Both the position numbers and the translations under genes were made by a program. From an uncultured bacterium (lineage in GTDB: Bacteria; Verrucomicrobiota; Kiritimatiellia; RFP12; UBA1067), in contig URIT01000003.1 of the NCBI GenBank assembly GCA_900547945.1, positions 1,406-65,405 on the forward strand: 64,000 bases of DNA, given 5' to 3'. Below the pieces are notes generated by a model. It had not been told where the DNA came from. It saw only the letters and a list, made by a program, of their open reading frames with translations, and did no database searches. Of this stretch, positions 25,969 through 51,601 are shown piece after piece (within the stretch, counting starts at the first letter, position 1; each line of letters opens with the position of its first letter).

Positions 25969-28800
25969 TCATCTGATCGTGGGCTGGCAACCTTCACAGT
26001 CAGACGCATAGGATCCACCGGCGACAACGCTATCGCGCGTGTCGTATCCTGCGCGAATCCATTCCGCCGAAAACTTCACGCGGTAGGCGAGCTTCCCTTT
26101 GCCTTTCCTGTAGTCGTAGAAGTCGGCGAACAGCACGGCATCGTCCCCCGTTCCGCTCACCTGAAGGACGGACGAACCCGTGACCGAACGCCCCTCGATC
26201 TTTCCACTCGACCGAATCGTCCCGTTCCTGTTCACCGTGAACATGAGCGACGGCTTGGAGGGCGGCGGTTTACATCCAGGGCACACAAGGAATCCAGATC
26301 CAGCGTGTACAGACTCCGTGAGCGCACCGAACGTGCCGATCCTCGCCAGCTTCTCCACGACATCCGTCACGCCCGCACGTGCCAATGCCTGTGCCGTCCC
26401 GCCAGAAACGTTCCACTCGGCATCTTTCGTCCCGACCTTGCCCGACAACCGCGCCCTCCCGTCATTTCCAGGAGACATGTCCAATACCAGCTCACACCAA
26501 TTGCCGCGTTGGTCGCGCAGGTCGATCTGGACAAAATCGTCCGTACAGGCACACGAATAGCCCGAGAGCGAAGAGGTCTTCCCCGCCGACACGACCTTGA
26601 CGCCGATCTTGCCGTTCGACGCAATCGACACGGATACCGTGCCACTCACGTCGCCGAGATCATCCGCATCATCCGCGATCAGGTCTTCGCAGGGCGGCAG
26701 GTCTCCGCCGATGAAACCACGATACGTTCCGACGCATGCGGACGGGAAAGGCGCCACCGCAACCGTGAACGTGGCCTTCTCGATCCTGCGTCCGTTCCTG
26801 GCCGTCAGCACCACCGTATAGACGCCCGCCTTCGTCGGCGTCCCCCACAATGCGGCAGAAGAAGATTCCCGGTCCAGGACCAACCTCAAGCCCGCCGGTA
26901 ACCCGCTTGCCGACACCGTCCAGCCTTCTGCGAAGGAGAACTCGAATGGCGGCCGGCAGCAATTTGAATAATCGCCGACAGTAAAGGGATAGGCCCCTTC
27001 ATATTCAAGGCCGTCGAACACCCAGCTCCGCAGATTCGGCACGACAACGCGCATGCTCTTCGTTGCCGTCGCACCGGAAAGGTTCTTCGCCGTCAGCGTG
27101 ACAACACTCGTGCCGGGTTTCAGCTTCGCCATGTCAGGAACGACAAGCGACAACCCCTGCAATTTCACGCCGGGCGGCAATCCCCTTGCCGTCACCTTCG
27201 GCTGGGTCATGCTTTCGACCTCCACCGTCCGTTCGTCATATCGGGCATCCGTGTCAATGCGCCATTCATCGTCCACGCGGATGCCGATCGCCGCATCCTC
27301 GTCCTTCGTAACGAATTTCGCATAGACCGGCTTCGAGGCCGCTGCCGAGAAAACAAAGGACGCATTTGCCGCACGATAGTCGCGGCCCCCCTGGAATGGT
27401 TCCGTGCAGGCCGCGTCCGCATACCACCCGGCAAAATAGCAGCCGCGCGCAGGCCTGGCCGAAAGCCTGACCGCCGTACCCGACTTCTTCACGCCGCCAC
27501 CCAATACCGTACCGCGTCCGAGAGACGCCCCACCGACGGCAACCACCTGATACCGGCTGTCGGCATCACGGACAATCACCGTCTTGACCGTCTTGCGGCG
27601 CGCCGCATCCGTAAAGGTGATCCTGTACTTCCCCGGCTTTGTGGGCGTCCCCGCAAACACCTCGCAGATCCCTTCGGGACAGGGCACCTTCGCCTTCCAC
27701 TTCAATCCCGGAGGAAGCCCGGAAACCGACCTAGCAAGCGAATGCCAATCCTCAACGGCCTCAAACGGCTCGCCGACCCGCAGCGCATCGAGCGCATCCA
27801 GATCAACATGCCGGGAAAGCCCGATGTCGTCATAGTCCCCTTCCGAAGCGTCGCCGACGATCCAGCGCACCGTCGCCGACTGCTGATAGCCGTTCGCGTT
27901 CTTCGCCGAGCACGTCGCATAATAGACGCCCCTCCGCGTCGGGCGCCCCGAGAACTCCCGCGTCTGGGCATTGTACTTGATTCCCGCCGGAAGCCCCGAA
28001 ACGGAAACCGTCACGGGCGATCCCGACGACACGATAAAGCAATCCTCAAGATCGCGTTCGACCTCGACGCCGACATCCGCCGTCAACTTCCCACCCTCGG
28101 AAATGAGAAGCCAGTCGTCCCCGGGCCCCATGCTTTCACGCCAGATGGCACGCATCACAACCGTTCTGTCAATTTCCGTCCCGTCAGGTGAAATCATCAG
28201 CCACTTCGGCACATACCGGCTCAGATCGATCCGGGTTCCAGTTGGGTAGACGTGTTGGCCATCCTCCTCGACGATCCCGCTGCTCACCGACCAGCCTCCG
28301 AACAGGTTCCCTGGCTTCCTGAAGGCGCACAGCGGCAACGTATAATACAGAGAGGTCCCTTCCTTGACCGAAAAAGACTTGCCCGGCATCGTCCCCATAC
28401 CGCCGCCGGCATCAAAGACGATTTTCACCGGGAGTTCAACGGAGATTCCGTACATGGGTTTTAAAGGCTCCCCAATACCAGGTACATCACCAAGGTCCAC
28501 CCCTTCCAACGGATTGTCCGAAGCGGCGCCGGCCGTCGCCGCCAACACCATCATCGCACAGCTCGCGGCAACCTTCAGCGCATGGAATTTCCCGACCGCC
28601 GCACACGTTTCGCCCCCATCGGCGAGTTGCCGGTCAATCCTAGAGGCCCCCTCTTCATCCCCCTGCAGATGGAGGCAGACCCCCAGCAGGACCTTCGCGC
28701 GCGTGCTTCCCGCGTCGGCCTTAAGGTACTCCCGCAGGGCGGCCTCCGCTTCACGCAGATCCCCTGCGCGCATCATTTCCTTAATCGTGTTCAGCTTCAT
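25969..28800 (-). CDS. Membrane-anchored surface protein: N-terminal TPR-like helix pair, TM segment, Listeria-Bacteroides-type repeats and He_PIG/Ig-like repeats
   Basis: 943 aa. The N-terminus MKLNTIKEMMRAGDLREAEAALREYLKADAGSTRAKVLLGVCL is TPR-like; the TM segment is LKVAASCAMMVLAATAGAA. SGLPAGIKY, SGLPPGLKW, RGLPPGVKL and SGLPAGLRL recur, together with GTPTKPGKY and GTPTKAGVY. FGGWSV and YFAGWY motifs are present. Confidence 0.75.
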   Translation of the reverse strand: MKLNTIKEMMRAGDLREAEAALREYLKADAGSTRAKVLLGVCLHLQGDEEGASRIDRQLADGGETCAAVGKFHALKVAASCAMMVLAATAGAASDNPLEGVDLGDVPGIGEPLKPMYGISVELPVKIVFDAGGGMGTMPGKSFSVKEGTSLYYTLPLCAFRKPGNLFGGWSVSSGIVEEDGQHVYPTGTRIDLSRYVPKWLMISPDGTEIDRTVVMRAIWRESMGPGDDWLLISEGGKLTADVGVEVERDLEDCFIVSSGSPVTVSVSGLPAGIKYNAQTREFSGRPTRRGVYYATCSAKNANGYQQSATVRWIVGDASEGDYDDIGLSRHVDLDALDALRVGEPFEAVEDWHSLARSVSGLPPGLKWKAKVPCPEGICEVFAGTPTKPGKYRITFTDAARRKTVKTVIVRDADSRYQVVAVGGASLGRGTVLGGGVKKSGTAVRLSARPARGCYFAGWYADAACTEPFQGGRDYRAANASFVFSAAASKPVYAKFVTKDEDAAIGIRVDDEWRIDTDARYDERTVEVESMTQPKVTARGLPPGVKLQGLSLVVPDMAKLKPGTSVVTLTAKNLSGATATKSMRVVVPNLRSWVFDGLEYEGAYPFTVGDYSNCCRPPFEFSFAEGWTVSASGLPAGLRLVLDRESSSAALWGTPTKAGVYTVVLTARNGRRIEKATFTVAVAPFPSACVGTYRGFIGGDLPPCEDLIADDADDLGDVSGTVSVSIASNGKIGVKVVSAGKTSSLSGYSCACTDDFVQIDLRDQRGNWCELVLDMSPGNDGRARLSGKVGTKDAEWNVSGGTAQALARAGVTDVVEKLARIGTFGALTESVHAGSGFLVCPGCKPPPSKPSLMFTVNRNGTIRSSGKIEGRSVTGSSVLQVSGTGDDAVLFADFYDYRKGKGKLAYRVKFSAEWIRAGYDTRDSVVAGGSYASDCEGCQPTIR

Positions 28801-29881
28801 TTTCCGTTTCCTCCGTACTGGTTGACAACATGTCGTTTAAAATCTTCTCGGTCTCCACACGCCGCACGCAGAACAAGTTCTCGCCCAGCGTTCCCGTCGT
28901 ACTCAGCGCCGCCGCGCTGCACCCCGCCTTGCATTGCCGTCCGAACGGGCATTTCGCACACATGCCGGACAGCGCATGTTCCTTTTGCCGGAACGCATGG
29001 AACGACTCCGGATCTCGCCAAATCGCCTTGAGCGGACGCACGCGAAGATTCGCCTCGATGAAGTCGCTCCCGAGCGAAAGACAGGGCAGGACGTCGCCGT
29101 TCGCCCGTATGCCGATGACGTGCCGACCGGCCGGACATCCCGTCCAGACCTGATGCAGGAAACGGAGTTTCGGCGTCAGGGGGAAATAGCCGAAATCGTC
29201 CATCGTCCCGATCTTCAGCCGCCCGTTCAGGTCGTAAAGGCAATGCGTCACGCGCTCGGCGTACCAGGCGAACTGATCGGGTGACAAGAGAAGCGAGTCG
29301 TCAAACCGTTCGCCTGCGCGATGCGCGACCTGGATCTGCCAGAGGATGGGCGTATCCTTGAAGGTCTCGGCAAAAAGATCGAAGTCACCGAGGTTCCGGG
29401 ACGTGAACGTCGTGATCGCCGTCACCTGTCGGTGTCCGTCCGCCACAAGATCGTCCAACAGCCTGCGGCACGTCGCATAGCCGTCCACGCCGCGCGTACG
29501 GCGATAGCTCTCCGGCGTCGCGCCGTCCAGGCTCACGCCGACGGCACGGGGGGCAAGCGCCTTGAACTGCGCGCGAACCGCCTCCGTCACCAGAAGGCCG
29601 TTCGTGATCAGCTGGAGCTCCATGTCGACCGCCTTGACGGAGGCGGCGACTTCGTACCAGTCGGGACGCAACAGGAATTCACCGCCCAGAAGCGTAACCG
29701 TCCGGCAGCCGAGCGCCGCGAGATCCCGAATCACCTGTCGGAGTTCGCCTAGGGACATTTCATCCGCACGGGCACGGCCCGACGCCGAGGCACAGTGCGG
29801 GCAACGCAGATTACAGCGGTTCGTCACTTCAACGACCGCCTGCCGCAGAGAATGCGCCATTTGTCTTCCATTTTTCTCCAT
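28781..29881 (-). CDS. Radical SAM / SPASM-domain maturase-like enzyme
   Basis: CNLRCPHC (CxxxCxxC) sits near the N-terminus, followed by LLGGEFLLRPD. The C-terminal SPASM-like cysteines read CPAGRH...NGDVLPC...CAKCPFGRQCKAGCSAA. ATG at 29881 (the track start at 29887 is GTG). The 3' end overlaps the next gene by 20 nt. Confidence 0.88.
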   Translation of the reverse strand: MEKNGRQMAHSLRQAVVEVTNRCNLRCPHCASASGRARADEMSLGELRQVIRDLAALGCRTVTLLGGEFLLRPDWYEVAASVKAVDMELQLITNGLLVTEAVRAQFKALAPRAVGVSLDGATPESYRRTRGVDGYATCRRLLDDLVADGHRQVTAITTFTSRNLGDFDLFAETFKDTPILWQIQVAHRAGERFDDSLLLSPDQFAWYAERVTHCLYDLNGRLKIGTMDDFGYFPLTPKLRFLHQVWTGCPAGRHVIGIRANGDVLPCLSLGSDFIEANLRVRPLKAIWRDPESFHAFRQKEHALSGMCAKCPFGRQCKAGCSAAALSTTGTLGENLFCVRRVETEKILNDMLSTSTEETENEAEHD

Positions 29882-29923
29882 GGTCACCTACCGTCACTCC
29901 GTTTGCACGCCAAGAAAGATCCG

Positions 29924-31714
29924 TCAATTCAGGTCGCAGCCAAAACGCTTTGCTACGTCCAGCACAACCGCCCCATACTTCCCCGAACCCGGAACGAGGG
30001 AGAAGCCCACGCCCGCGCCACGCAGACGCTCGACGACCGGCACCAGGACCTGGTGTTCGTACCGCTCGATCGACCAGTCGTTCCGTTTCGCACACGCTGA
30101 AAGCGAGATCTTGAGATACTTCGGCCGCTCGCCGAGGACACGGTCCAATCGGGACAAGATCTGTTCGGGCGATCCCTTCTGCGGCTGGAAGAGGGAAACG
30201 TTCTGCACGAGGGGCTGCGCCAAATGCGGTTTCGGCAAAGACGGCGTCGGGACGCTCTCCACCTTAGTGCCAGTGGTCTCCGTAGGCGCCGTGCCGCGCG
30301 AAACGGCCACGACATGGCGTGGGGCAGGCGCCGTATTGCTCGACGCGGGCGCCACATGAGTCGAATGCGCCACGTTACTTGAACAGGATACAACACTACT
30401 CGGACTGGACCCCACATTTCCCGAAGCGGGAACAGGGCTCGTGGACAGAAGTGTTTCCACCGGGACCTTGCCCTCGGCAGGCCCTACGGCGGCAACCGTT
30501 TTCCACACAACCGGCAGACGAAGGTACGGTTTCAGGAGGATGACCGCCCCCGTTGCCACGATGAGCAGCAACAACCCCGCGCAAGCCACGCGCAACGTGT
30601 GGCGTCGACGTGGATCATCCGGGCATCCAGAGCCGCGTGCCGTTTTGCCCTTGTCCCCCTCAACCGGTGGCACGGCCTTCTCCACAGTCCGCGTCGCCGT
30701 TTCGGGCTGGGAGGACGCAAGGATTTCGTCAATCGCGGCAACGATTTTATCGCCGGAGGACACTCTTTTCTCAAGGCTCTTCTCGCACATCCTCGCCAAC
30801 AGCGAAACGACGCCATCCGGAACGTCCAGCTCTTGTTCCCGTTGTGCCGGGGGAGAACCGCCGCCGACTTCCCCTGGGACGTCCCGTTTCCCCTCGGCGC
30901 AGAACGTCCGGGTCTCCATTGTCGGCAGCGTGACCGCCGTCCGCCCCTCCTCCGCACATGCGCAGACTGGCTTGAACGTGCGGATGTCGGGAAGCGGACG
31001 GGGCGAAAGAAGGAAGGACGTCACTTCGACGATGTTCGTGGCGGGATAGGGGCGGCTGCCGGCCAGCATCTCGAAGAAGACGATGCCGAGGCTCCAGATG
31101 TCGGCCCGGGCATCGACCGACGATGCGTCCCGCACCTGTTCGGGGGACATGTAGGCGGGCGTGCCGAAGACCTGCGCGGGGAGGGTCTTGAGCATGTTTT
31201 CGGCATCGTCCTGGACGGCCTTGGCGATGCCGAAATCCACCAACTTGGCAACGCCATCCGAAGTGAACAGGATGTTCTCCGGCTTGATGTCGCGATGGAC
31301 CGAATGGCGCTTCTCGACCGCCGCCAGCGCCAGGGCGACCTGGCGTACGATTCCCAACGCCTCGCGCCAGGGGATCCGCCCCCGGCACCGCATGCGGTCC
31401 CGCAGCGTCCCGCCGCCAAGATACTCCATGACGATGTAGTAAAACCCCGACGTCCCTTCGCATCCCGCGTCGTAGACCTCGACGAGATGCGGGCTGTGCA
31501 GCCCGCAGACGAGCGCGGCCTCCTGGTTGAAACGGTCGACGAACTCGCGGTTTCGCTCGGCGATCGCCGGATCGAGGACCTTCAACGCGCGTTCGACGCG
31601 CAGCGTGGGATTCCGCACGAGGTAGACCACCCCCATCCCACCCTTGCTGAGGATGCGCGTGATGGTCCAGTTCCCGAACCGGTCCCCTTCCTTCGGCATG
31701 CGTGAAACGTCCAT
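29924..31714 (-). CDS. Membrane Ser/Thr protein kinase (Hanks type) with an extracytoplasmic C-terminal domain of unknown family
   Basis: GGMGVVYLV (P-loop), ALK, HRDIKPENILF, VDFGIA and GTPAYMSPEQ. The TM segment is LRVACAGLLLLIVATGAVILL, followed by about 240 aa with an S/P/T-rich linker. Confidence 0.93.
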   Translation of the reverse strand: MDVSRMPKEGDRFGNWTITRILSKGGMGVVYLVRNPTLRVERALKVLDPAIAERNREFVDRFNQEAALVCGLHSPHLVEVYDAGCEGTSGFYYIVMEYLGGGTLRDRMRCRGRIPWREALGIVRQVALALAAVEKRHSVHRDIKPENILFTSDGVAKLVDFGIAKAVQDDAENMLKTLPAQVFGTPAYMSPEQVRDASSVDARADIWSLGIVFFEMLAGSRPYPATNIVEVTSFLLSPRPLPDIRTFKPVCACAEEGRTAVTLPTMETRTFCAEGKRDVPGEVGGGSPPAQREQELDVPDGVVSLLARMCEKSLEKRVSSGDKIVAAIDEILASSQPETATRTVEKAVPPVEGDKGKTARGSGCPDDPRRRHTLRVACAGLLLLIVATGAVILLKPYLRLPVVWKTVAAVGPAEGKVPVETLLSTSPVPASGNVGSSPSSVVSCSSNVAHSTHVAPASSNTAPAPRHVVAVSRGTAPTETTGTKVESVPTPSLPKPHLAQPLVQNVSLFQPQKGSPEQILSRLDRVLGERPKYLKISLSACAKRNDWSIERYEHQVLVPVVERLRGAGVGFSLVPGSGKYGAVVLDVAKRFGCDLN

Positions 31715-31773
31715 GTGCCCCTTCCCCCCTTCACCACCCGAAAACGCCCTTGACGCGCGCCTTCAGAAGCTCC

Positions 31774-32835
31774 TTACAGTTCAATGCCCGCAATCCGGGC
31801 CTCCTCGACAAAAGACGGCGCCTCGCCCGCCTCAAACCCTCCGCAGACGGTTCCGTCGGGCGCGATGGACGCCGTCTTCCAGCGATGCAGCTCGCGCACG
31901 CGGTATTCCCCCCGTTCCAGGGGAAGGACCTCGGCGATGGACACGACCTTGCGCGAACCGTCCGAGAGACGCGCCGTGTGGACGACCGCGCCGATGGCAC
32001 TCGCCACCTGCGCGCGCAGGGCCGAGAGCGGGATGTCGATGCCGCTCAGCAGGGCGCACGTCTCGATGCGGCTCAGGGCGTCAAGGGGCGAATTCGCGTG
32101 GATCGTGCTCATTGAGCCCGCATGGCCGGTGTTGAGCGCCTGCAGCAGGTCGAGCGCTTCGCCGCCCCGGATTTCGCCGATCACGATGCGATCGGGGCGC
32201 AGGCGCAGGGCCGAGTGGATCAGGTCGCGGATCGTCACCTCGCCCTGCCCGTTCTTGTCCGCCTTGCGCGTCTCGAACGGCACGATGTGCCGCTGCTGGA
32301 GCTGGAGCTCGCTCGCGTCCTCGATCACGAGCACGCGCTCGTTGTCCGGGATGAAGGAGCTGAGCGCGTTCAGGACGGACGTCTTGCCCGAGCTCGTCGC
32401 GCCCGAGACGATCACATTCTTGTGCAGGAGGACGAGCGCGCGGATGAGCCTCCGCGCCCGTTCGTCCACGCTGCCGAACGCCTGCATCCTCTCGATGGTC
32501 AGCGTGTCCTTCTTGAACTTGCGGATGGCGATGACCGTGCCGAGGCGCGACAGGGGCGGAATGACGGCGTGGACGCGGCTGCCGTCCGGGAGGCGCGCGT
32601 CCAGGCGCGGGTGCATCTCGTCCAGGATGCGCCCGACGGACTTCGCGATGTTCGCCGCCGCCGCCTTGAGCGCGGGCTCGCTCACGAACCGCGCCGGCAC
32701 CTCCTCCAGTCGGCCCTTCCGCTCGACATAGACCCGTTCGGGCCCGTTGATCAGGATCTCGCTGACGTCGTCGTCCGCCAGATGCTCCGCCACCGGCTGC
32801 AGGAACAGCGTCAGGAATGAATTGTTGTCTTGCAT
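31774..32835 (-). CDS. CpaF/TadA/VirB11-family secretion ATPase, short form without an FHA domain
   Basis: 353 aa. VSEILINGPERVYVE, Walker A GATSSGKTS, Walker B LVIEDASEL, RLRPDRIVIGEIRGGEA and GHAGSMSTIHANS. Confidence 0.9.
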   Translation of the reverse strand: MQDNNSFLTLFLQPVAEHLADDDVSEILINGPERVYVERKGRLEEVPARFVSEPALKAAAANIAKSVGRILDEMHPRLDARLPDGSRVHAVIPPLSRLGTVIAIRKFKKDTLTIERMQAFGSVDERARRLIRALVLLHKNVIVSGATSSGKTSVLNALSSFIPDNERVLVIEDASELQLQQRHIVPFETRKADKNGQGEVTIRDLIHSALRLRPDRIVIGEIRGGEALDLLQALNTGHAGSMSTIHANSPLDALSRIETCALLSGIDIPLSALRAQVASAIGAVVHTARLSDGSRKVVSIAEVLPLERGEYRVRELHRWKTASIAPDGTVCGGFEAGEAPSFVEEARIAGIEL

Positions 32836-33599
32836 GTTCTATTTCCTCTGTCTTGAATGCGACGTCCAATCATCATCATGCCCCCCACCAGGACAAACAC
32901 CCCGCCGAGGAACTGCCCGGGCGAGACGGGAACCCCCTCCAGAATCGTCCCCCGGCTGTCGCCGCGCAGCAGCTCAAGCGCGATGCGCCCCGCCCCGCAT
33001 GCGACAAGCGAGAAGCCCGCGCGGTAGCCCGCCTTGACTGCGGTCATGGCGAGCGTAAACGCGACGAGCAGCCACCCGGCTTCATAGAGCTGGACCGGGC
33101 AGAGCGGAACGGATCCGTACGCCGCGCAGGGTGGGGAGCCCGCCGGATAGACGACACCCCAGGGCGCCCGGACGGGGATGCCGTAGCAGCATCCCCCCAG
33201 GAAGCAGCCCAAGCGGCCGACGGCCTGAGCGGGCAGGCAGCCTGGCACGAAGAGTTCAAGGAGAAGCAGGACGGGAATGCCCGCCATCCTCCCGAAGGCG
33301 ATCCAGAACAGCATGCATCCCAACAGCCATCCGAAGTAGTTCAGACCCCGGCCAAAGGGATGGGCGAAGACCTGACGGACGCCGTCATGGAACAGCACGT
33401 CCGTCACCGCCCCGGACACGACACCGAAGAGCAGGCAGAGCGGCAGGGCCGGGAGGAGGCGGTCGTTCACGGTGGCGACGGGCAATCCCATGCGCCGCGC
33501 ACGGTAAAGGAACAAGAGCACCAGAATCATCAGCCCGGCGCCGATGCAAAGCGGGAACGAGCCGATTTTTCCAAAGGGCAGGCTGATGAAAGGATGCAT
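32811..33599 (-). CDS. Prolipoprotein diacylglyceryl transferase (Lgt) family membrane protein
   Basis: Start MHPFISLPFGKIGSFP at 33599; a 262-aa polytopic protein with the Lgt-type motif GRLGCFLGGCCYG. Its 3' end overlaps the ATPase start by 25 nt. Confidence 0.7.
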   Translation of the reverse strand: MHPFISLPFGKIGSFPLCIGAGLMILVLLFLYRARRMGLPVATVNDRLLPALPLCLLFGVVSGAVTDVLFHDGVRQVFAHPFGRGLNYFGWLLGCMLFWIAFGRMAGIPVLLLLELFVPGCLPAQAVGRLGCFLGGCCYGIPVRAPWGVVYPAGSPPCAAYGSVPLCPVQLYEAGWLLVAFTLAMTAVKAGYRAGFSLVACGAGRIALELLRGDSRGTILEGVPVSPGQFLGGVFVLVGGMMMIGRRIQDRGNRTCKTTIHS

Positions 33600-33627
33600 G
33601 TTGCCGCATTCCCCGCGATGCCGTGCC

Positions 33628-34011
33628 TTACGCCACGCGCTTCGTGTTGGCAATCGAAAGCGCCCCCGCGATGATGTACAGGATCGCGCTGATCAACGCC
33701 AGCGGGTTGAGGATGATCACGTTGACAATCCCCATGAGAAGCGCGAGCAGAATCACGAGCACACCCGTCAGCGTCGACCACTTCGACTTGCAGAAGAAGC
33801 AGAGCGCAAAGACGACAAGGCCGAGAATGCTCGGCAGGAAGAGCGAAGAGCCGCCCCTCCCATTCGTCATCTCCTGCATGGCGGACGCGCAGATCACATT
33901 GCACAGCAGGCTTGGAATCCACAGCACGAAGGCGATGATGGCCAATATGACCGGCGCGAAGGTCTTGCGGTGCTCGATGATGACAACCTTGTTGTCGTTG
34001 TCGGTATTCAT
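33628..34011 (-). CDS. Small integral membrane protein (127 aa, about 4 TM segments), unknown family
   Basis: Strong SD AAAGGAGAA before the ATG at 34011. Hydrophobic segments include FAPVILAIIAFVLWIPSLLC, LPSILGLVVFALCFFC, LTGVLVILLALLMGIVNVII and ALISAILYIIAGAL. Confidence 0.7.
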   Translation of the reverse strand: MNTDNDNKVVIIEHRKTFAPVILAIIAFVLWIPSLLCNVICASAMQEMTNGRGGSSLFLPSILGLVVFALCFFCKSKWSTLTGVLVILLALLMGIVNVIILNPLALISAILYIIAGALSIANTKRVA

Positions 34012-34104
34012 GTTCTGTTCTCCTTTGGAACCTTGTTTACGACAGGCCCGCTATCGGTTCCGCACTAGCATGCCCGGCTGTAGCGACGCGCTACAAAGCA
34101 AACC

Positions 34105-34560
34105 CTATTTCGATATGCCCCAGGAAAATCCCGTTCTGTTCCGTCCCTGTGCCCAAAGCGACCAAAGGACCTTTTGCCCGTTCCCCTCGTACTGCAGCAG
34201 GACCCGGCCGTTGTCGTCTTCCACGCCCACAACATGCCGACAGCGGAAGCCCCGTCCCGACATGAGCGCAGAAACCTCATCCCGTGCCTCACGGATGTCG
34301 GCAGGGATCATTCCGATTTGAAGCCATCCCCTGTTCCGGGGATCCGACAACACCACCTTCCAGGAGGATGGAAAATCCTCCGCAAGCGCGCGGACGTCGC
34401 CCCCGCCCCGTGTACCGCACCCGTCGGTTCCGGAATCCAGGCAGTCCACCGGGCAGGAGGAGACCGCTGGCAGCAGTGTGACCCCGCCAATCACGATCAG
34501 TGAAAAGGCGATGACCGGTACCAGCAGCGTGTGCTGGACATTCTGCAGGGGGGCGTTCAT
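34105..34560 (-). CDS. Membrane-anchored hypothetical protein (151 aa)
   Basis: The ATG at 34560 overlaps the upstream stop as ATGA. The N-terminal anchor is LLVPVIAFSLIVIGGVTLL, followed by a Cys-containing segment CPVDCLDSGTDGC. Confidence 0.65.
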   Translation of the reverse strand: MNAPLQNVQHTLLVPVIAFSLIVIGGVTLLPAVSSCPVDCLDSGTDGCGTRGGGDVRALAEDFPSSWKVVLSDPRNRGWLQIGMIPADIREARDEVSALMSGRGFRCRHVVGVEDDNGRVLLQYEGNGQKVLWSLWAQGRNRTGFSWGISK

Positions 34561-35294
34561 TCTCCAAAGGCTCCCAGATACCTTCTTTGGGGGATGGGGA
34601 ATGGCTGAATCAAGAACAGCCCCTCCTCGTCGTTCCCCTCGTCAAGGTGGATCCAGTCGTCGTCGAGAACTCTTCCAAGGTATCCGCCCGAAACGACCTC
34701 ACGCTCCGGAATCGCCCGGTCTCGCGAACGGGGATCGCTGGGATCGCTGTCACGATCCAGGCCCGACAGGGCATGCCGGTGAAACACGAAGACGCGCGGG
34801 AAATCGCAGTTCATTTCAATCTCGGACCGATTGAACCAGCCAGAATCAGGGTCGGACGTTCCCGACATCAGTCCACACAACAACATCATACCCCGGACCC
34901 ATCCAGGGACCTGAACGGGCAGCTTGACGATTCCCCCGGAATAGCAGGACATGAAGTCATTCAAATGAAGCGCCTCGTCCGTCGCCGCATTCACCTTGAA
35001 CCCGGCATCGGTCCCACCGATGGATCGCTCAAAAAGCGCAACAAGCAATTCGGCGACCTTGCCCGCATCGCGCCCCCCGTCCTCGCCATGCGGGCAGAAC
35101 CGGCTGGCCCCCACCCATGTCACCAATTCGTCGCCAATCTGCATGCGCATCTTGTTGACCGACAGATCGGCGACGAGAAAGAGCCCCCCCAGCAAGAGGA
35201 AGTACAGGGGCGCGACAAGGACAAATTCCATCAAGACCGAACCGGAACGGGACGATCCAACCGTCCGCCGCATGGTATGCCGTCCCATCTTCAT
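34557..35294 (-). CDS. TadE-like pseudopilin (second copy)
   Basis: The N-terminus SRSGSVLMEFVLVAPLYFLLLGGLFLV matches the TadE-like prepilin motif (G / S-V-L-M-E-F); 245 aa. Confidence 0.75.
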   Translation of the reverse strand: MKMGRHTMRRTVGSSRSGSVLMEFVLVAPLYFLLLGGLFLVADLSVNKMRMQIGDELVTWVGASRFCPHGEDGGRDAGKVAELLVALFERSIGGTDAGFKVNAATDEALHLNDFMSCYSGGIVKLPVQVPGWVRGMMLLCGLMSGTSDPDSGWFNRSEIEMNCDFPRVFVFHRHALSGLDRDSDPSDPRSRDRAIPEREVVSGGYLGRVLDDDWIHLDEGNDEEGLFLIQPFPIPQRRYLGAFGE

Positions 35295-35301
35295 CGCGCG
35301 T

Positions 35302-37092
35302 TCACCGTGTCGAACCCTCTAGAATGAGCCGTTCCTGTGCCGGCTTATTCGGCGTTTTCCGCAACCAGTTGTCGAACTTGTCAATGACCTTCGTGCCGAT
35401 GCCGTCGGCATTCACCTTGATGACGGCCCCCTTCCTCAACTCCTGGATTTTTTGCCGAAGGCAAAGGAGGCATTTCTTGGCGAGGGCGTTGTGCGTGCCG
35501 TCCGCCCATTTCCCCAACGTCTCGCTTGCCCAGTCGATGGCCTTTGGAATGAGCTTGTTGTTGATCCACGACAACGCCCATTCAAATGCCCAGTCGATCA
35601 GCTTCGCCGCAATGTCCTTCAGGAACGTAATCGCCATTTTCCCGAGCTGTGTAAACGCCTTGCCAAGATCGGGGGCATTGAACAGAACCCCCAACACGTT
35701 CTTGACACCGGCGACAATCCCCTTGCCGTCGATTCCAAGACGGTCCAGGACGCTCTTCAACCCGGGATACTTCGCGATCAGCTTGTCGATCTGTCCGCTG
35801 ACGATCTTTTCTACTTTGGCCGACACCTTCTCGATAATGGCCCCCCCGATGACCGGAGCCTGTTCGACGATGGCGTTCCACGGGTCGCCGCCGGGCGTCA
35901 CGATCTCGTTCCAGATATTCCGGAACGCATCGCCTGTCCCCGGTCCAAGGGTCTCGTCAACGACGTCCGCCACATAGTCTCCGACCGTGGCCCCAAGGCC
36001 CGCCCAATTGCCTTCCCCCGCCTGGTCAATGGCCTTCTTGGCCACCTCCTTGACGTCGGGGGGCAGATCGCTCTTGTCGATCAGCGCCTTCGCCCCGTCG
36101 CTCGCCACCGCCGTGACCGTCTTTTTCAGGTCTGCAACCGTGACCGTCCCCGTCGCAACGCCCTTGACGAACCCCTTGAGCTGGTTCGCCGACGTCGCAC
36201 CCGGCGCATATTTGTCGATCAGGGCATTGATCTCGGCCAAGGCCGCCTCCGACAGCCCCTGCGTGCCGTTTTGGGTGTACGCATCGATCAAGGCGTTGAG
36301 CCGGGCTGCCGCCTCGGGATCGAGGTTCTTGGCAATCACGTCGCGGAGCGCGTCCAATCCTACCGCTTGGCCCAGATTCTTGAGCGTGTCGAGCGTATCC
36401 AGGGCCTTGCCGTCCACGATGTCCTGGAGGAGGCCGTTGACGGTCTTGGCCGCGTTCCCGTAGGGGATCTTCTCGCCGATCACCTTCTGCATCTCGGTGA
36501 GCAGCTGCCGCTTGACGTCCTCCGACGTTCCCTCGTTGGCAATCGTGTCCAGCATGGCGTTGACCGAATCCGCCACATCGGCCGGCAATGCGTCCGCCAG
36601 TTGCTTCTTCATTTCGTTGACGGCAAGCGAAACGGCAAGATCCTTGCCATCCGTACCCAACGCGGCAACAAAGCCCTTGCCCCCGTCGGCGTTGACCGTG
36701 CAGAGCTTGTCGGCGAGGTTCAGGATGCGCTGCCGGTCGGTTTCTGCCACCTTGCCGTCCAGCGCCTTGGCCAGTTCCTTCTGAACGACCTCGCGTACGC
36801 CGCCGTTCTGAACCCATGCCTCGCCTTTCTTCACCGCCTCGTCGATCTTCCCCTTGACAAGGCCGTAGACGGATTCGGAGAGGCCCTTGTCGGCAAGCAG
36901 GGACGCCACCTGCTTCTGGAAGGCCGCGTTTGCGAGATCCTGTCCGGATTGGACCTCGGCGGGCAAGGGGGCGAATGCGTCGTTGAGCAGATTTCCCGCC
37001 CGTGCCGTCGAGGTGATGAAACACGAGATCCCAATGGACAGCACCAGGGCGAACAGACGCCGCAGAGGCGTTCTAGAAAGCGCGCGCTTCAT
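35302..37092 (-). CDS. Secreted alpha-helical protein of unknown function (596 aa)
   Basis: The start MKRALSRTPLRRLFALVLSIGISCFITSTARA (signal peptide) at 37092 overlaps the upstream stop by 1 nt. The body is A/K/D/L/V-rich and helical. The C-terminus is amphipathic and Trp-rich: LIDWAFEWALSWINNKLIPKAIDWASETLGKW. Confidence 0.75.
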   Translation of the reverse strand: MKRALSRTPLRRLFALVLSIGISCFITSTARAGNLLNDAFAPLPAEVQSGQDLANAAFQKQVASLLADKGLSESVYGLVKGKIDEAVKKGEAWVQNGGVREVVQKELAKALDGKVAETDRQRILNLADKLCTVNADGGKGFVAALGTDGKDLAVSLAVNEMKKQLADALPADVADSVNAMLDTIANEGTSEDVKRQLLTEMQKVIGEKIPYGNAAKTVNGLLQDIVDGKALDTLDTLKNLGQAVGLDALRDVIAKNLDPEAAARLNALIDAYTQNGTQGLSEAALAEINALIDKYAPGATSANQLKGFVKGVATGTVTVADLKKTVTAVASDGAKALIDKSDLPPDVKEVAKKAIDQAGEGNWAGLGATVGDYVADVVDETLGPGTGDAFRNIWNEIVTPGGDPWNAIVEQAPVIGGAIIEKVSAKVEKIVSGQIDKLIAKYPGLKSVLDRLGIDGKGIVAGVKNVLGVLFNAPDLGKAFTQLGKMAITFLKDIAAKLIDWAFEWALSWINNKLIPKAIDWASETLGKWADGTHNALAKKCLLCLRQKIQELRKGAVIKVNADGIGTKVIDKFDNWLRKTPNKPAQERLILEGSTR

Positions 37093-38159
37093 CACTTCAC
37101 CTCCTTCCGCCCATTCCACGCCGACAACAGGTCATCGGCCTGCAGAAGGTCATACCATTCCATGCTGGACGTCTTCGCCGTGACCTCCTTCATCAGCGAA
37201 ACCGTCACGTACAGGCGCGGGACTTTCGTGTTCACGAGCACGTAGAGCGTGGCGGTCTCCGTCGGGACGTATCCATACGGCGTGAAATCCCTGCGGAACA
37301 TCTCAGGCATCTGCGCAAAGAGCCGCGTGAGGGGACGCGCGTTCGGTTCGCGGAAGTAGGTCATCAACTGGAATTCGCTCCCAGTCCGGGCCAGTCGGGT
37401 GAGATGCGCGGCGATGCCGACATCGCGGGCGTTCTTCAGAAACGCCAACGTCAGTTTCATCCTGACGGCGGATCGCGTCTGGATGCGGTTCAATTCGCCT
37501 TTCATGTCGAGGTTCATGAGCGTCATCGTCATCTTGCCCCACGACTCTTTTCCCTCCAACGGGAAAACTTCGATGAACCTCTTCCGGGTACCCGAGACGA
37601 CCCGCCAGATCTCGACGGAGAGGGGATCTTTCTCCGGCACGACCGTCAGGATACGCGCCTCGGCCGTCGGTGCCGTTTCGTCCTCTCCCCGAAACGTCTC
37701 GCCGCTCAGGAGATAGAAGTCCGATATGCGTACGGCGGGGAGCGTGTTCCCCCTCTGGGCCCTCAGGCGAAGCAGCATGAGCGTGTCCCACCACGGATTG
37801 TAGAGCGCCATCAGCGCGCCCTGGGCGTCCTGCGGGCCGGACAGGACCATCGCCGCCGTGAAGAAGTCCGTCAACTGCTGTTCGATCATGTCCGGGGCGA
37901 TCTGGCTGTTCCATTTGCCCTTTGCCTTCTCTTCAAACGAGGCGGCCACGGCATCGTGGGGCTTTGACAGGGCCACCTCGCGGAAGTCCGCCAGATGTGC
38001 AGAAAAGACTGATTCCTGTCCCTTCTCATCCTTCATCAGTTCTTCAATCATCTTGATCCCCTCCGCAGGGTCATCGGCTTGTGGAACGGCACAGGTGGCC
38101 ATCGCCACCATCGCCACTAGGGGCAGCGCGAGCTGCCTGATCAGGTTTCGTGTCTTCAT
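37092..38159 (-). CDS. Secreted hypothetical protein (355 aa)
   Basis: Signal peptide MKTRNLIRQLALPLVAMVAMATCAVPQA. Composition is normal and I recognise no family. Confidence 0.75.
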   Translation of the reverse strand: MKTRNLIRQLALPLVAMVAMATCAVPQADDPAEGIKMIEELMKDEKGQESVFSAHLADFREVALSKPHDAVAASFEEKAKGKWNSQIAPDMIEQQLTDFFTAAMVLSGPQDAQGALMALYNPWWDTLMLLRLRAQRGNTLPAVRISDFYLLSGETFRGEDETAPTAEARILTVVPEKDPLSVEIWRVVSGTRKRFIEVFPLEGKESWGKMTMTLMNLDMKGELNRIQTRSAVRMKLTLAFLKNARDVGIAAHLTRLARTGSEFQLMTYFREPNARPLTRLFAQMPEMFRRDFTPYGYVPTETATLYVLVNTKVPRLYVTVSLMKEVTAKTSSMEWYDLLQADDLLSAWNGRKEVK

Positions 38160-38170
38160 GTTTTCATCTC

Positions 38171-40693
38171 CTAGAGGATGCGGGTTCGAATAAGCGTCTT
38201 CACGTCAAGGTGCCCGTCGTCGGGCGTGTCATTCGGTGACGAATCGTCCACAGGGGATTCAGCCGACGTTGCGTCCGGAAGAATGTCCTGCATCGACGGC
38301 GATGGAACCACGTCCGTACCGGGACGCGGAGGCGCCGCCAGTGACAGGAACCGCCCGGAAAGGCGATCGCCATCCTCCGTAAAGGGAATCCATTTGGGAT
38401 GCCCCTCGCCATCGTCCAACGCCGCCAGGGCAAATGCATTCCGACCGGTGTCCCCCAGGGCGGCCTCCGTCGCCCACCACACCTCGGACGGGCCGCTCAG
38501 GCTGTCATGCCATTCCGTTGAAAGCCCAAAACCGGAATACTTCAGCGGCAGCAGCGTCGCATCCCAATCCGTCTCGCAGAGATTCCAGCATCGGGCAAAC
38601 CGCCGCTCGTTGTCCACATCCTTGCAGACGCATCCGACGCGGCTTTTCAGAAGGTCCCCATCGTCCTGCCGGATGTTGAAGCGCCCCAACGCGCCCGACG
38701 CATCCAGCGCGTCGTCGCACACGGCATCATACCGTGTTTCGTACTCGCCCGCCGGAGCCTTGGCGACACCGTATTTCTCCCTTTGCTGAAGCGACGGATT
38801 GAAGCGGTGCGCCGCGCGGGCGGCCGAAAACGCGACAAGGTAGCCGTCCGCAACGGGATCGAACGCGGAATAGATCCCCTCCGCCGTTGCCGAAGGCGAT
38901 GCGGCCTCCGGCGAGAATCCATTGAGCAGAACCGACCAGGGGTTGCGCTGCCGACGCGCGAGCCCGACGACGATCGAACCGCCACCCGAATAGTACTTGT
39001 CGTTGAGGATCCACGGCATTGCGACCTCGCCCGTATAATACTCGAACGTGTTCGTATTGCAGATCTCCCAGTCGTCGCCATAGATGCGGGCAAACCCGTT
39101 CGGCTTGGTCGTAACGGAAAGTTGAACCGTTGCACGGGATGTCCACCATTGCGAATCAATTTGGCCCAGATAAATTTTGAGATCGTCAGGGATATCGTCA
39201 GAGATACATGGTGGCCAAAGAAACTGTTCCCTTCCGGAGAAGGGTTCAATCACATACAACTTCTTTTCCTTCGAGCAACAGCTTTTGTACGCCGACCGCG
39301 TGTGTGACTCATATACTGATGGCCCCGAACACCCCTGACAGCCATGTCGGTCACATGTGTGCAGAAACTTGCTGTTAAACCAGTGAAAATGATAATCTTC
39401 ATTTACTGGCCATGGCGAGTAAATACGCACGCAGCGATACGCATACTGTCCCGCACACCATTCATACTCCGCATACGGCGCGACCGTATCGGGGGCCTCC
39501 CGACACTGATCCGGGCAATACGAGCGCGTATTGACGCATGAAGGTCTTGAATCCTCCCTCCCCAACCGCCCGTGGTGTGCGCGATAGGCCGACAGCGGTT
39601 CATCCCCTATACGATTCGCGTTCTTGTAGACCCTGCAGATGCCCAGTGCCCTGTATGACTCCGCCGTGCGTTCGACAAACGCCGCATCGGTTTTTGTTTC
39701 ATCCGCATGGCTGCGGACAAACCACTGGTCCAGCCCCCCGAAGCGCTTGTTCTCGTCACCCGACGGTCCAAAGTAGTCGGCCAGGTTGTCATGGACCTCT
39801 CCATCCGCCATGCTCAGGAAAAGGCGTTCGTCGAGTTCCGTATTGTAGAGGGGCGACATCACATTGCCCGCCACGGCATCCCCCCCCTCCACCTCCACCT
39901 CAATCTCCTCATAGGGGGTAAAGAACGTCGGGCAATGGCAGTAGCCGAAGAAATCATCACGGGCTCGTTCATCCAAATCGCCAGGCGACAGACGCGGAAG
40001 ATTCTGCCGCAACACCGCCATGGCCGTTTGCGGAATCGCCTTGTTCATCTTGCGGGCAACGTCCAGGAGACACCCGTTGTACAGCCTGATGCTTTCCTTG
40101 AACTGGAGGATGAATTGGGGATAGGTCGCCTCGATGTGTTGCATATTCTGGAGCGTCTCCTGAATGACCGAAATCGGAACCGGGGTCTGTGATCCGTTCA
40201 AGCGGACATAATCCGTTCCCGCCCCAGCTACTCCGCAAAACCACCCAATATCCTGAGTTCTCAACGCATCATCGCATTTTCTACAGGCAGGTTTTCCAAA
40301 TCCCCAACTTCCTTTGTCCGTACTCTTAACCCAGTTCTCGCACATGGTCTTATCCTCTGAGAACCGTCCCTCGACGAGCTGAAGCCATTTGTAGGTGAGA
40401 TAGTCGATCTGCATGTTCGTGAGCGTGATATATGTCCACGCCAGCGCGCGGTTGACCATGGCCATCCGGCTCAGGCCGTCGGCCTCCACCAGCGCGGCGG
40501 AATAGGCGGCCGCATCGCATGCGTTCTGGATCTCGATCTTCTGCCGCGCAGTCTCCCCCACCGCGTAGACGCCCGCGCAGAGCACATAGAGAAGCAGCAC
40601 AACCGAGAGCGTGAGCATAAGCGCAACCCCGCTTTCCTCCCGCCGCAGACGGTTCATCTCCGCCTTGAAGATCCTCGCCATTGCGTACATCAT
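38171..40693 (-). CDS. Giant TadG-like pseudopilin (Tad/Flp pilus-assembly TadE/G-like N-terminus), cysteine-rich
   Basis: The N-terminus RREESGVALMLTLSVVLLLYVLCAGVYAVGETARQKIEIQNACDAAAYSAA matches the TadG (PF13400-type) pattern. 840 aa with 27 Cys by my count. The ATG at 40693 (or 40690) overlaps the upstream stop. Confidence 0.8.
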   Translation of the reverse strand: MMYAMARIFKAEMNRLRREESGVALMLTLSVVLLLYVLCAGVYAVGETARQKIEIQNACDAAAYSAALVEADGLSRMAMVNRALAWTYITLTNMQIDYLTYKWLQLVEGRFSEDKTMCENWVKSTDKGSWGFGKPACRKCDDALRTQDIGWFCGVAGAGTDYVRLNGSQTPVPISVIQETLQNMQHIEATYPQFILQFKESIRLYNGCLLDVARKMNKAIPQTAMAVLRQNLPRLSPGDLDERARDDFFGYCHCPTFFTPYEEIEVEVEGGDAVAGNVMSPLYNTELDERLFLSMADGEVHDNLADYFGPSGDENKRFGGLDQWFVRSHADETKTDAAFVERTAESYRALGICRVYKNANRIGDEPLSAYRAHHGRLGREDSRPSCVNTRSYCPDQCREAPDTVAPYAEYEWCAGQYAYRCVRIYSPWPVNEDYHFHWFNSKFLHTCDRHGCQGCSGPSVYESHTRSAYKSCCSKEKKLYVIEPFSGREQFLWPPCISDDIPDDLKIYLGQIDSQWWTSRATVQLSVTTKPNGFARIYGDDWEICNTNTFEYYTGEVAMPWILNDKYYSGGGSIVVGLARRQRNPWSVLLNGFSPEAASPSATAEGIYSAFDPVADGYLVAFSAARAAHRFNPSLQQREKYGVAKAPAGEYETRYDAVCDDALDASGALGRFNIRQDDGDLLKSRVGCVCKDVDNERRFARCWNLCETDWDATLLPLKYSGFGLSTEWHDSLSGPSEVWWATEAALGDTGRNAFALAALDDGEGHPKWIPFTEDGDRLSGRFLSLAAPPRPGTDVVPSPSMQDILPDATSAESPVDDSSPNDTPDDGHLDVKTLIRTRIL

Positions 40694-41439
40694 TGCCCCG
40701 GTCTCCGTGCGTAGCGAACGGTCTTCCACGGCTTGGGCAGCAGGACGACCGACCGCAGGGGAAGGTAGTCAAGCCCCATCGTCCGATGCCGCGCGGCATC
40801 GGCCGCCGCGATCTGGTCCCCATCCGGTTGCCAGCCCGTCGGCTCCCATGTGAAGGTGGTGGACGATGCCGCGCGTGCAACGGCAAGCAACCGCCCGATG
40901 ACGGGGACATGCAGGGGAAAATCAAACTCAACACAGACTTTCACCGCCGGGGCGTCCCATGTTTCCTCGCTCCAGACCTTCTCCCCTTCACGCCCAATGA
41001 TGCGTACCTGGTTCTCGATATGCGAAGAATTCGGGATGGGGGCCATTCCCCCTTCGCCCTTCGGCCACCATCCGGGAACCCCCAAAACCGATCCAGGTGA
41101 ACCGAACGTCCCCTCGTCCCAATCCGGACTTGAACTCACCCAGGCCAATGTGCGGCACGCCGCCTCCCAGCAGGGTCCCTTGGTACGGAAGAAATCGCCC
41201 TCGCCCCGTTCATTCATCTCGCGATACTCGCCCGGATGGTAGACAAGCGCGGCACGTGCGGCGTTGAAGGCCGCATAATGGGTCATGATCTGCGCATACC
41301 AGATCAACGCGAACTGAACGACCGCGAAAATCAACAAGGTCAGAAGCGGAAGGACGAGGACGCACTCCGTCAGAACCGTACCACGACGGGAGATCCGGGC
41401 CAAGCAGGCAACGGCAAGTCTGGGCAACGGTGTTCTCAT
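40690..41439 (-). CDS. TadE-like pseudopilin
   Basis: SRRGTVLTECVLVLPLLTLLIFAVVQFALIW is the TadE-like motif. The ATG at 41439 overlaps the peptidase stop as ATGA. Confidence 0.8.
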   Translation of the reverse strand: MRTPLPRLAVACLARISRRGTVLTECVLVLPLLTLLIFAVVQFALIWYAQIMTHYAAFNAARAALVYHPGEYREMNERGEGDFFRTKGPCWEAACRTLAWVSSSPDWDEGTFGSPGSVLGVPGWWPKGEGGMAPIPNSSHIENQVRIIGREGEKVWSEETWDAPAVKVCVEFDFPLHVPVIGRLLAVARAASSTTFTWEPTGWQPDGDQIAAADAARHRTMGLDYLPLRSVVLLPKPWKTVRYARRPGQ

Positions 41440-41978: not shown

Positions 41979-41997
41979 GCGTGGACGCTCGGTACGA

Positions 41998-42315: not shown

Positions 42316-42338
42316 GTGTTGTTCTCCTTTTCGTATGA

Positions 42339-42354
42339 TGCGGAACGTTCCGCA
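42339..42354 (-). promoter_or_regulatory. Perfect 16-bp palindrome TGCGGAACGTTCCGCA between the two Flp genes
   Basis: Read directly. It lies 14 nt after the flp-2 stop and 24 nt before the flp-1 ATG, immediately upstream of its SD. Confidence 0.6.
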
Positions 42355-42367
42355 GGTGTGAAATGCG

Positions 42368-45015: not shown

Positions 45016-45016
45016 A

Positions 45017-47397: not shown

Positions 47398-47398
47398 A

Positions 47399-48271: not shown

Positions 48272-48284
48272 GCGGGCTTTCCTT

Positions 48285-49982: not shown

Positions 49983-49992
49983 GCCAGATGCC

Positions 49993-51588: not shown

Positions 51589-51601
51589 GATTTATGTCTC
51601 C

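Follow-up and report, generated by a model that had tools for sequence, protein, structure and literature searches.

We analysed a stretch of 64,000 nucleotides (nt) from an uncultured bacterium of the Kiritimatiellia (assembly GCA_900547945.1, contig URIT01000003.1, positions 1,406 to 65,405; hereafter, the window), in which the gene for a short CpaF-family ATPase, here called ATPase2, overlaps the 3' end of a gene for a divergent member of the Lgt family, here called LgtL. Both genes belong to an array on the minus strand that extends from ~59.7 kb down to ~26 kb and constitutes a Tad/Flp-type pilus locus. It is probable, in our judgement, that two unrelated modules have been joined here in this species, namely a conserved second ATPase of Tad loci and a separate membrane cassette composed of LgtL and of a small partner protein encoded upstream of it. 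The genes concerned and their junction are:

31774..32835, minus strand: ATPase2, short CpaF-family ATPase with the second N-terminal domain and the C-terminal domain only (NTD2+CTD), 353 amino acids (aa), ATG start (Pfam T2SSE, 182 bits)
32811..33599, minus strand: LgtL, divergent Lgt-family membrane protein of the partner-associated 'CFLGGCCY' clade, 262 aa (Pfam LGT, 108.7 bits)
32811..32835, minus strand: overlap of the LgtL 3' end with the start of ATPase2, 25 nt (from the coordinates of the open reading frames, ORFs)
33628..34011, minus strand: LgtL partner, 127-aa protein with four transmembrane (TM) segments and a CNVIC (CxxxC) motif at the end of TM1, distantly DUF4064-like (match to a partner hidden Markov model, HMM)

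The ORF of LgtL as listed spans 32811..33653 (minus strand) and begins with TTG, the likely true start being the ATG at 33599, 28 nt past the stop of the preceding partner gene. A Shine-Dalgarno-like sequence, AGAGGAAAT, is located inside the LgtL 3' end, 5 nt ahead of the ATPase2 ATG, and no terminator-like site was found between LgtL and ATPase2. A 98-99% identical strain assembled from a different sample (L083; related loci are cited by L numbers) shows this 25-nt overlap as well, and the last ~16 residues of LgtL, past the final helix, have no counterpart in its orthologues. The neighbours of ATPase2 are LgtL and a Hanks-type kinase, with TadB/TadC ~14 kb off in the same operon-like array. 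An initial annotation of the window had described two ORFs overlapping by 25 nt, an Lgt-type motif in one product and, in the other, a 353-aa ATPase with Walker, Asp and His boxes, lacking an FHA domain and adjacent platform genes; the overlap is confirmed by the window coordinates, the motif is present in LgtL (GRLGCFLGGCCYG, aa 128-140), and the description of the ATPase proved accurate.

Domain comparison indicates that ATPase2 is a CpaF-family ATPase cut down to the NTD2+CTD core, with its catalytic boxes intact: Walker A (GATSSGKTS) at aa 145-153, the Asp box at aa 167-176, Walker B at aa 214-224 and the His box at aa 236-248. No FHA domain was detected in it by a Pfam scan. Its best solved relative is Caulobacter CpaF (290 bits), VirB11, FlaI and archaeal GspE scoring 96-118 bits, and its residues 13-352 align to residues 149-490 of the 501 of Caulobacter CpaF, with only 12 residues preceding the aligned part. 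In Caulobacter CpaF the disordered NTD0 comprises residues 1-78 and NTD1 extends to residue 146 (PMC11300603), and since the alignment begins at residue 149, ATPase2 is devoid of both NTD0 and NTD1. The FHA-fused CpaF of the window (FHA-CpaF) matches Caulobacter CpaF with 424 bits, aligned from residue 28, and is 46% identical to ATPase2. In the NCBIfam ranking a TadA-type model came first for ATPase2, which stays far below the cut-off of the PilT/PilU model TIGR01420 (56 bits vs 319.1). The possibility that a conserved N-terminal Thr of ATPase2 serves as an FHA docking site was discarded, given that position 9 is not conserved.

To place ATPase2 within the family, a FastTree phylogeny of the shared core was built from 93 sequences, comprising the two ATPases of the window, those from 80 related loci and Caulobacter CpaF (taken from the search alignment), with archaeal GspE and FlaI as outgroups; the sampling is biased in that sequences were recovered with ATPase2 as bait. 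The short ATPases form a monophyletic clade (support 0.84), which holds every ATPase2 orthologue of the Planctomycetes-Verrucomicrobia-Chlamydiae (PVC) bacteria as well as ~50%-identical ATPases from Bdellovibrionales, Bacteriovoracaceae, Myxococcales and Planctomycetia. This clade is sister to the CpaF clade (support 0.93), in which Caulobacter CpaF, the FHA-CpaF of the window and the FHA-CpaFs of PVC bacteria, Acidobacteria and Planctomycetes are found, so that ATPase2 falls outside the clade of the characterised CpaF. Over the core, ATPase2 is 42-45% identical to either CpaF, and the FHA-CpaF of the window and Caulobacter CpaF are 57% identical to each other. Taken together, the separate clades and the core identities indicate that ATPase2 is a paralogue of long standing that did not arise by recent duplication of the neighbouring motor, and that it belongs to an old clade of short CpaF paralogues. 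The initial annotation had left the relationship between the two ATPases to a phylogeny, and it is in distinct clades that they now stand.

Orthologues of ATPase2 with 58-90% identity were identified in 65 PVC loci, and they share clade-specific invariant motifs, including the Walker A sequence GATSSGKTS, the His box TGHAGSMSTIHAN and RVHA in place of RVNA. The culturable species Victivallis vadensis is represented by the MAG (metagenome-assembled genome) locus L109, with an ATPase2 at 77% identity. Linkage in these loci was scored by tblastn with all proteins of the window array. Tad genes lie within 10 kb of ATPase2 in 35 of the 65 loci, and Tad, PP2C phosphatase or kinase genes are present in 49, leaving 16 without any linked gene of these three kinds. 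PP2C is encoded directly upstream of ATPase2 in 15 loci, and a kinase directly downstream (within 1.2 kb) in 16; in L085, which has no other match, a flp pilin gene is found immediately upstream of ATPase2. Where both ATPase genes are present, the two subtrees appear broadly congruent by eye (L126/L137, L144/L146/L147 and L143). The linkage of these orthologues to Tad, PP2C and kinase genes argues that ATPase2 is a conserved second ATPase of kinase-controlled Kil-like Tad systems in Kiritimatiellia and Lentisphaeria. The initial annotation had suggested a dedicated retraction motor or an alternative motor, an idea that would have lost ground had the homologues been unlinked to Tad loci elsewhere; the linkage observed in 35 PVC loci, or in 49 when PP2C and kinase genes are counted, strengthens it to that extent.

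Neither LgtL nor its partner belongs to this shared arrangement, as they were found in none of the 65 related ATPase2 loci. In L084, L087 and L093 the gene order is TadE-like gene, 151-aa gene and ATPase2, and in many other loci PP2C occupies that place. The 151-aa gene is immediately upstream of ATPase2, at a distance of 78 nt in L093 and with larger gaps in L084 and L087, and it has its equivalent in the window:

34105..34560, minus strand: 151-aa membrane protein gene, which in the synteny table marks the insertion site of the partner and LgtL pair

In the window it is precisely between these two genes, the 151-aa gene and ATPase2, that the partner and LgtL pair is found. Lentisphaerae, Bacteroidota, Myxococcota and Clostridia also have the cassette, there outside Tad loci, and LgtL orthologues with 57-64% identity keep the partner, their other neighbours being an LRR (leucine-rich repeat) protein or an M48 peptidase on the upstream side and a coiled-coil lipoprotein on the downstream side. 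Judged from gene order, the pair is an insertion specific to this species and not a component of the Tad machine, and the presence of LgtL in a pilus locus is an accident of that insertion. The cassette would have entered directly downstream of the 151-aa gene, abutting the ribosome-binding site of ATPase2, and this position would account for the 25-nt overlap and for the co-transcription that we propose. A recent foreign origin of the cassette was ruled out, since its G+C content, including that at third codon positions, matches that of the neighbouring genes and is normal for the locus. The suggestion of the initial annotation that LgtL provides a locus-specific lipid-modification step is thus not borne out, given the absence of LgtL from all 65 ATPase2 loci, the unrelated contexts of the cassette and a junction restricted to this species.

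As to the lipoprotein genes that follow LgtL orthologues, they carry an LAGC or LTGC lipobox and are located at L080:4572-4646 and L082:2402-3781. The L082 product is a coiled-coil-rich protein of 459 aa, and in L080 the first 25 aa are on the contig. No homology was found between the L082 lipoprotein and the three lipoproteins of L083 described below or those of the window.

The region around ATPase2 also varies between strains. In L083 there is an extra 2.9 kb between ATPase2 and the kinase (L083:11831-14754), with three lipoprotein genes encoding products of 298 aa, 479 aa and 205 aa, the last being LpoB-like; the window keeps only the end of this third gene, and AAGGAG microhomology is present at both junctions of the 2.9-kb block:

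31734..31775, minus strand: remnant of the LpoB-like lipoprotein gene, last 14 codons and stop (blastn breakpoints; 100% identical 14-aa match)

From the shared AAGGAG and the gene remnant we conclude that the window strain lost the lipoprotein genes by a microhomology deletion, which in turn points to the surroundings of ATPase2 as a hot spot where accessory envelope genes are gained and lost.

LgtL is recognised as an Lgt-family protein by Pfam (PF01790, 108.7 bits vs a gathering score of 24.9) and fails every NCBIfam Lgt model, including TIGR00544 (50.8 vs 118.9) and NF000778 (94.9 vs 334). A search of the PDB with the single LgtL sequence gave no match, the family profile being needed: the profile of 36 LgtL relatives aligns with the whole length of E. 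coli Lgt (5azb), with an E value of 2e-38. The AlphaFold2 model of LgtL (pLDDT 93.5) has 5azb as its only significant PDB match, with a TM-score of 0.66 and an E value of 7e-9. In comparison with E. coli Lgt, LgtL keeps G99, G104, G142, R143, G145, G154, F211, R239, E243 and R246 and carries the substitutions Y26F, H103F, N146C, E151C and Y235C. Y26, H103, R143, N146, G154 and R239 are essential in E. coli Lgt (PMC13251419), and of these six R143, G154 and R239 are kept, with Y26, H103 and N146 changed. Transfer of a glyceryl-lipid group from a phospholipid is probably an activity that LgtL has retained, given its Lgt fold and the presence of the two arginines by which the phosphate of phosphatidylglycerol is held; as a matter of speculation, its substrate may be the conserved cysteines of the partner or a narrow set of proteins.

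The Cys motif of LgtL, GRLGCFLGGCCYG, was considered as a sign of a new function and rejected as such, because natural Lgt variants with Cys at the positions equivalent to 146 and 151 of the E. coli enzyme are known, H103 and N146 also varying in distant Lgts (PMC13251419). The motif is common to at least 600 genes, including conserved PVC Lgts that pass the Lgt model of NCBI, and since Cys 146/151 has been reported in distant Lgts, the motif alone says little about LgtL. When the window and the related loci gathered by then were searched with E. coli Lgt by tblastn, Cys-type genes and no Asn-type gene were retrieved, and the window LgtL was not reached at an E value of 1e-3.

Two sets of Lgt sequences, recovered by searches from the window LgtL and from the Victivallis protein P0060, can be told apart by a short motif. 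The 'CFLGGCCY' set comprises LgtL of the window, its 57-64% identical metagenome orthologues, sequences from Lentisphaerae and Victivallis vadensis, and some from Kiritimatiellae, Myxococcota, Bacteroidota and Clostridia. The 'CFLNGCCY' set is widespread in Victivallaceae, Lentisphaeria, Kiritimatiellia, Verrucomicrobiota, Omnitrophota and Planctomycetota; its members are 60-90% conserved among many Kiritimatiellia, bear the name Lgt at NCBI and, in Victivallis, are encoded in an envelope and housekeeping context beside an RluD-type pseudouridine synthase and BacA. Three 'CFLNGCCY' PVC Lgts, from Kiritimatiellia and Victivallis, pass TIGR00544 with 135-144 bits, whereas the five cassette-type proteins scored, LgtL included, fail it with 50-77 bits. 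In a joint Lgt tree LgtL nests with the partner-associated copies of Lentisphaerae and Victivallis (support 0.96), and the larger clade around it leaves out nearly all 'CFLNGCCY' sequences.

The partner follows the same division. With an HMM built from PVC copies and scored on the ORF directly upstream of the Lgt-family gene on the same strand, the partner family was detected in 37 of 79 'CFLGGCCY' loci, across phyla, and in none of the 80 'CFLNGCCY' loci. The family is characterised by an N-terminal KSNAPWILG…IPNxLCxxxCAxA and a C-terminal GKSKxS…NxKR, and its relatives match DUF4064 with 23-26 bits, below the gathering score of 32.1. Loci carrying the cassette include L001-L007, L009, L010, L014-L020, L022, L024, L030, L036 and L038, among others. 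The S. aureus DUF4064 protein AuxB has been reported to bind the kinase PknB (PMC12505970), a parallel that we take as a lead only because the DUF4064 match of the cassette partner is sub-threshold. Kinase-like genes were seen on the opposite strand upstream of the cassette in L001 and L005, and in L006 and L007 ECF-sigma-like (extracytoplasmic function) and kinase-like genes are divergent from it, at ~1.5-4 kb in all these cases. In Lentisphaerae and Victivallis a gene for a zinc-ribbon and TM2 membrane protein follows the cassette Lgt and overlaps its 3' end by ~20-25 nt (L002:10750-11154, L003:10750-11196, L004:10722-11183, L006:6461-6907 and L168:6750-7154), a junction of the same kind as that of ATPase2 in the window.

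LgtL shares with E. coli Lgt (PDB 5azb/5azc) the Pfam LGT domain and the seven-helix fold, differing from it by a short head domain, by scores under the NCBIfam cut-offs and by the 4-TM partner gene. It also resembles second lgt copies described in other bacteria (PMC13251419): like MSMEG_5408 of M. smegmatis (Y26H/N146C), LgtL is divergent and substituted at Y26 and N146, and like the plasmid-borne lgt of the B. cereus group, encoded near lipoproteins of a type IV secretion system (T4SS), it lies in a secretion or pilus-type cluster. LgtL differs from those copies in belonging to another clade, in having a DUF4064-like partner, which was not reported there, and in that its link to a pilus is specific to this species.

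Because related PVC bacteria carry a different, better-conserved Lgt elsewhere, LgtL is probably an accessory paralogue and not the general Lgt of the cell, and a second Lgt, of the 'CFLNGCCY' type, is likely to be encoded elsewhere in this genome. The latter expectation is based on the clade of LgtL, its failure with the curated model, the patchy occurrence of the cassette as opposed to the broad distribution of the 'CFLNGCCY' type, and four MAGs that carry ATPase2 as well as an Lgt of that type. At least four ATPase2-bearing MAGs have a 'CFLNGCCY' Lgt at a separate locus, namely RUG11196, AS06rmzACSIP_375, ELA529 and ELA450, the respective pairs of ATPase2 and Lgt loci being L135/L192, L140/L194, L139/L252 and L120/L256. 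A search of protein clusters for the 'CFLNGCCY' Lgt of this very species gave no candidate tied to it. The view of the initial annotation that Lgt is normally a stand-alone gene is too strong, as two lgt copies occur in ~1,300 of ~13,000 genomes (PMC13251419).

The remainder of the window provides the setting for these genes. Its G+C content is ~65%, and the nearest relatives of its proteins are found in MAGs labelled Kiritimatiellia, Lentisphaeria or Victivallales. The Tad array encodes lipoproteins, a PP2C phosphatase, CpaB and a secretin, the FHA-fused CpaF, TadB, TadC and two FHA proteins, as well as a Flp pilin, an A24 prepilin peptidase, TadE/TadG-like pseudopilins and several unknown proteins; after these come LgtL and ATPase2, the Hanks kinase, a radical-SAM/SPASM enzyme and large surface proteins. 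Those to which the argument refers are:

48285..50120 as listed, true start probably internal, minus strand: FHA-CpaF, the primary motor (Pfam T2SSE and FHA)
46501..48271, minus strand: TadB and TadC platform genes, the sole platform pair in the window (Pfam T2SSF)
52398..53735, minus strand: PP2C phosphatase, here displaced to the head of the Tad core (direct upstream neighbour of ATPase2 in 15 of the 65 related loci)
29924..31714, minus strand: Hanks-type Ser/Thr kinase, the usual downstream neighbour of ATPase2 in relatives (Pfam Pkinase)

No TadZ/CpaE (ParA/MinD-type) gene was detected across the Tad array (26000..59700 of the window), which has FHA proteins, a kinase and a phosphatase in its place. 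The 175-aa ORF listed at 41998..42525 is over-extended, its real product being a Flp-type pilin (AGDTAGAVMMEYVVLGVLIVAAVV; GAVMMEYVVLG) that is called as a 104-aa gene in the L083 strain. Lipobox-type N-termini, judged by eye, are present in several proteins of the array (DUF1425-like, LLGGC; LpoB-like, LSGC; and others).

The array as a whole resembles the Kil system of Myxococcus xanthus, with its FHA-CpaF KilF (PMC8460266, PMC12075869), in being an FHA-rich Tad-like locus with an FHA-fused CpaF and no TadZ seen, and in having extra FHA proteins, a short secretin, CpaB, TadB/C and pseudopilins. However, Kil involves a single ATPase (PMC8460266, PMC12075869), whereas two CpaF-family ATPases are encoded in the window array, and the PVC loci add ATPase2 together with a Hanks kinase and PP2C. 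With CpaF/TadA of Caulobacter (PDB 8rkd, 9e24; PMC11300603, PMC12019362) ATPase2 has in common the NTD2+CTD core, the Walker A/B, Asp and His boxes and a gene in a Tad-type locus. It differs in the absence of NTD0/NTD1, in its sister clade, in not being adjacent to TadB/TadC and in sharing its operon with a true CpaF orthologue, where the Tad systems described use a single ATPase. A further likeness is to PilT, the retraction ATPase of type IVa pili, to which ATPase2 would be analogous as a paralogue of ~350 aa of an assembly motor without the N-terminal domains of that motor; unlike PilT, ATPase2 lies outside the PilT family and arose inside the CpaF branch, and a retraction activity of ATPase2 would be a conjecture drawn from this analogy.

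A working model for ATPase2 can be outlined on this basis. ATPase2 would form its own hexamer and act on the same TadB/TadC platform as FHA-CpaF. The phospho-dependent tethering imposed on the primary motor by the kinase and the phosphatase would not affect ATPase2, which has neither the FHA domain nor the N-terminal domains, and its access to the platform would be set by the adjacent Hanks kinase and PP2C, through control of its FHA-bearing competitor. ATPase2 would then be an FHA-independent alternative motor, the likeliest job of which is retraction or disassembly, and retraction is the most attractive because PilT is likewise an assembly-motor core minus its N-terminal domains. In its complete form, that is, a dedicated second Tad motor that is equivalent in function to PilT, evolved independently within the CpaF branch and occupies the TadB/TadC platform once the FHA-tethered motor is released by the Hanks kinase/PP2C switch, this analogy-based scheme is tentative and, on balance, rather unlikely.

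Several points weigh against a pilus motor that was joined to an unrelated cassette. Some ATPase2 orthologues are found among housekeeping genes (PVC subclade L120, L128), and the short ATPases of Bdellovibrionales, Bacteriovoracaceae and Myxococcales have a housekeeping context and no Tad genes within 10 kb, so that a role of ATPase2 outside pili is possible. The N-terminus of Caulobacter CpaF promotes retraction (PMC11300603), and therefore specialisation in retraction is not an obvious expectation for a paralogue that lacks this part. On the LgtL side, its co-expression with the Tad operon could be functionally exploited, and relatives with ATPase2 at least 80% identical were not among the matches listed in two 'CFLNGCCY' scans, an absence that is uninformative. 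The first of these points would be explained if ATPase2 were not a pilus motor at all and instead a general short CpaF-like ATPase, a regulator or another membrane engine, placed in Tad loci through shared regulation by the kinase and the phosphatase. Stand-alone short ATPases of the same clade indeed occur beside rpsB-tsf-pyrH-frr, enolase, aconitase/isocitrate dehydrogenase (IDH) or leuS (L148:9959-11056, L150:9941-11068, L159:6431-7549, L120 and L128, with no Tad genes within 10 kb), the 16 PVC loci without linked Tad, PP2C or kinase would fit as well, and the tightest neighbours of ATPase2 are PP2C and the kinase, not the TadB/C platform. We nevertheless regard this explanation as improbable, because the majority of the PVC orthologues are inside Tad loci, one of them directly after a flp pilin gene, because ATPase2 keeps all the catalytic motifs of the pilus-motor family, and because its tree is broadly congruent by eye with that of CpaF in the loci with both.

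With regard to LgtL, the alternatives to an accessory enzyme brought in by insertion concern either the whole cell or this array. That LgtL is the only, housekeeping Lgt of the organism, sitting by chance in the Tad operon, would be in keeping with LgtL being an intact protein of PF01790 that has the fold of Lgt and retains R143, R239, E243 and R246, with the occurrence of Cys 146/151 in working Lgts of distant phyla, the Lgt of Leptospira partly complementing E. coli (PMC13251419), and with its intactness in many metagenome contigs of the species (a cluster of 70 members, with one exact variant on 106 contigs). It is nonetheless a doubtful explanation, since LgtL fails TIGR00544 while the 'CFLNGCCY' Lgts of Kiritimatiellia and Victivallis pass, since it lacks Y235 as well as Y26, H103 and N146, which are among the six essential residues of the E. 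coli enzyme, and since LgtL falls in a patchy, partner-associated clade and not in the widely conserved PVC Lgt clade, the 'CFLNGCCY' type being the one carried by ATPase2-bearing relatives. Even less likely, in our opinion, is that LgtL is a dedicated lipidation enzyme for lipoproteins or pilin-like proteins of this Tad array. LgtL is co-oriented with the operon and overlaps ATPase2 with no terminator between them, several proteins of the array have a lipobox, ATPase2 is directly followed by three more lipoprotein genes in the sister strain L083, a lipoprotein gene follows LgtL in two of the 57-64% orthologue loci, and plasmid-borne lgt copies accompany T4SS lipoproteins (PMC13251419). On the other hand, none of the 65 related loci encoding the same machine has LgtL, the cassette resides outside Tad loci in Lentisphaerae, Bacteroidota, Myxococcota and Clostridia, the window strain lost three adjacent lipoprotein genes yet kept LgtL, and the conserved companion of LgtL is the upstream 4-TM protein and no Tad protein.

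If a conserved Tad ATPase2 and a separate membrane cassette have indeed met in this species, both modules are of interest beyond it. The association of a divergent Lgt-family enzyme with a tetraspanin-like 4-TM CxxxC protein is a widespread and unstudied pairing, which may perform a lipid transfer other than general lipoprotein maturation, and for annotation purposes the proteins of the cassette should not be called Lgt. As for the ATPase, Tad pili are taught as one-motor machines, the work on Caulobacter and on the Myxococcus Kil system resting on a single bifunctional ATPase; how Tad retraction is achieved is an open question (PMC11300603), and no description of an ATPase2-type paralogue was found in the literature on Tad and Kil systems that we searched. 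PVC bacteria of gut, rumen and sediment keep a second, N-terminally minimal and strongly conserved CpaF paralogue in their Tad loci. If the motor scheme were true, the direction of pilus movement would be set by phosphorylation and not by one bifunctional ATPase, and the PVC loci, in which ATPase2 is often flanked by a phosphatase or a kinase, offer a natural system for asking whether a PilB/PilT-like exchange of motors has evolved in the Tad branch.

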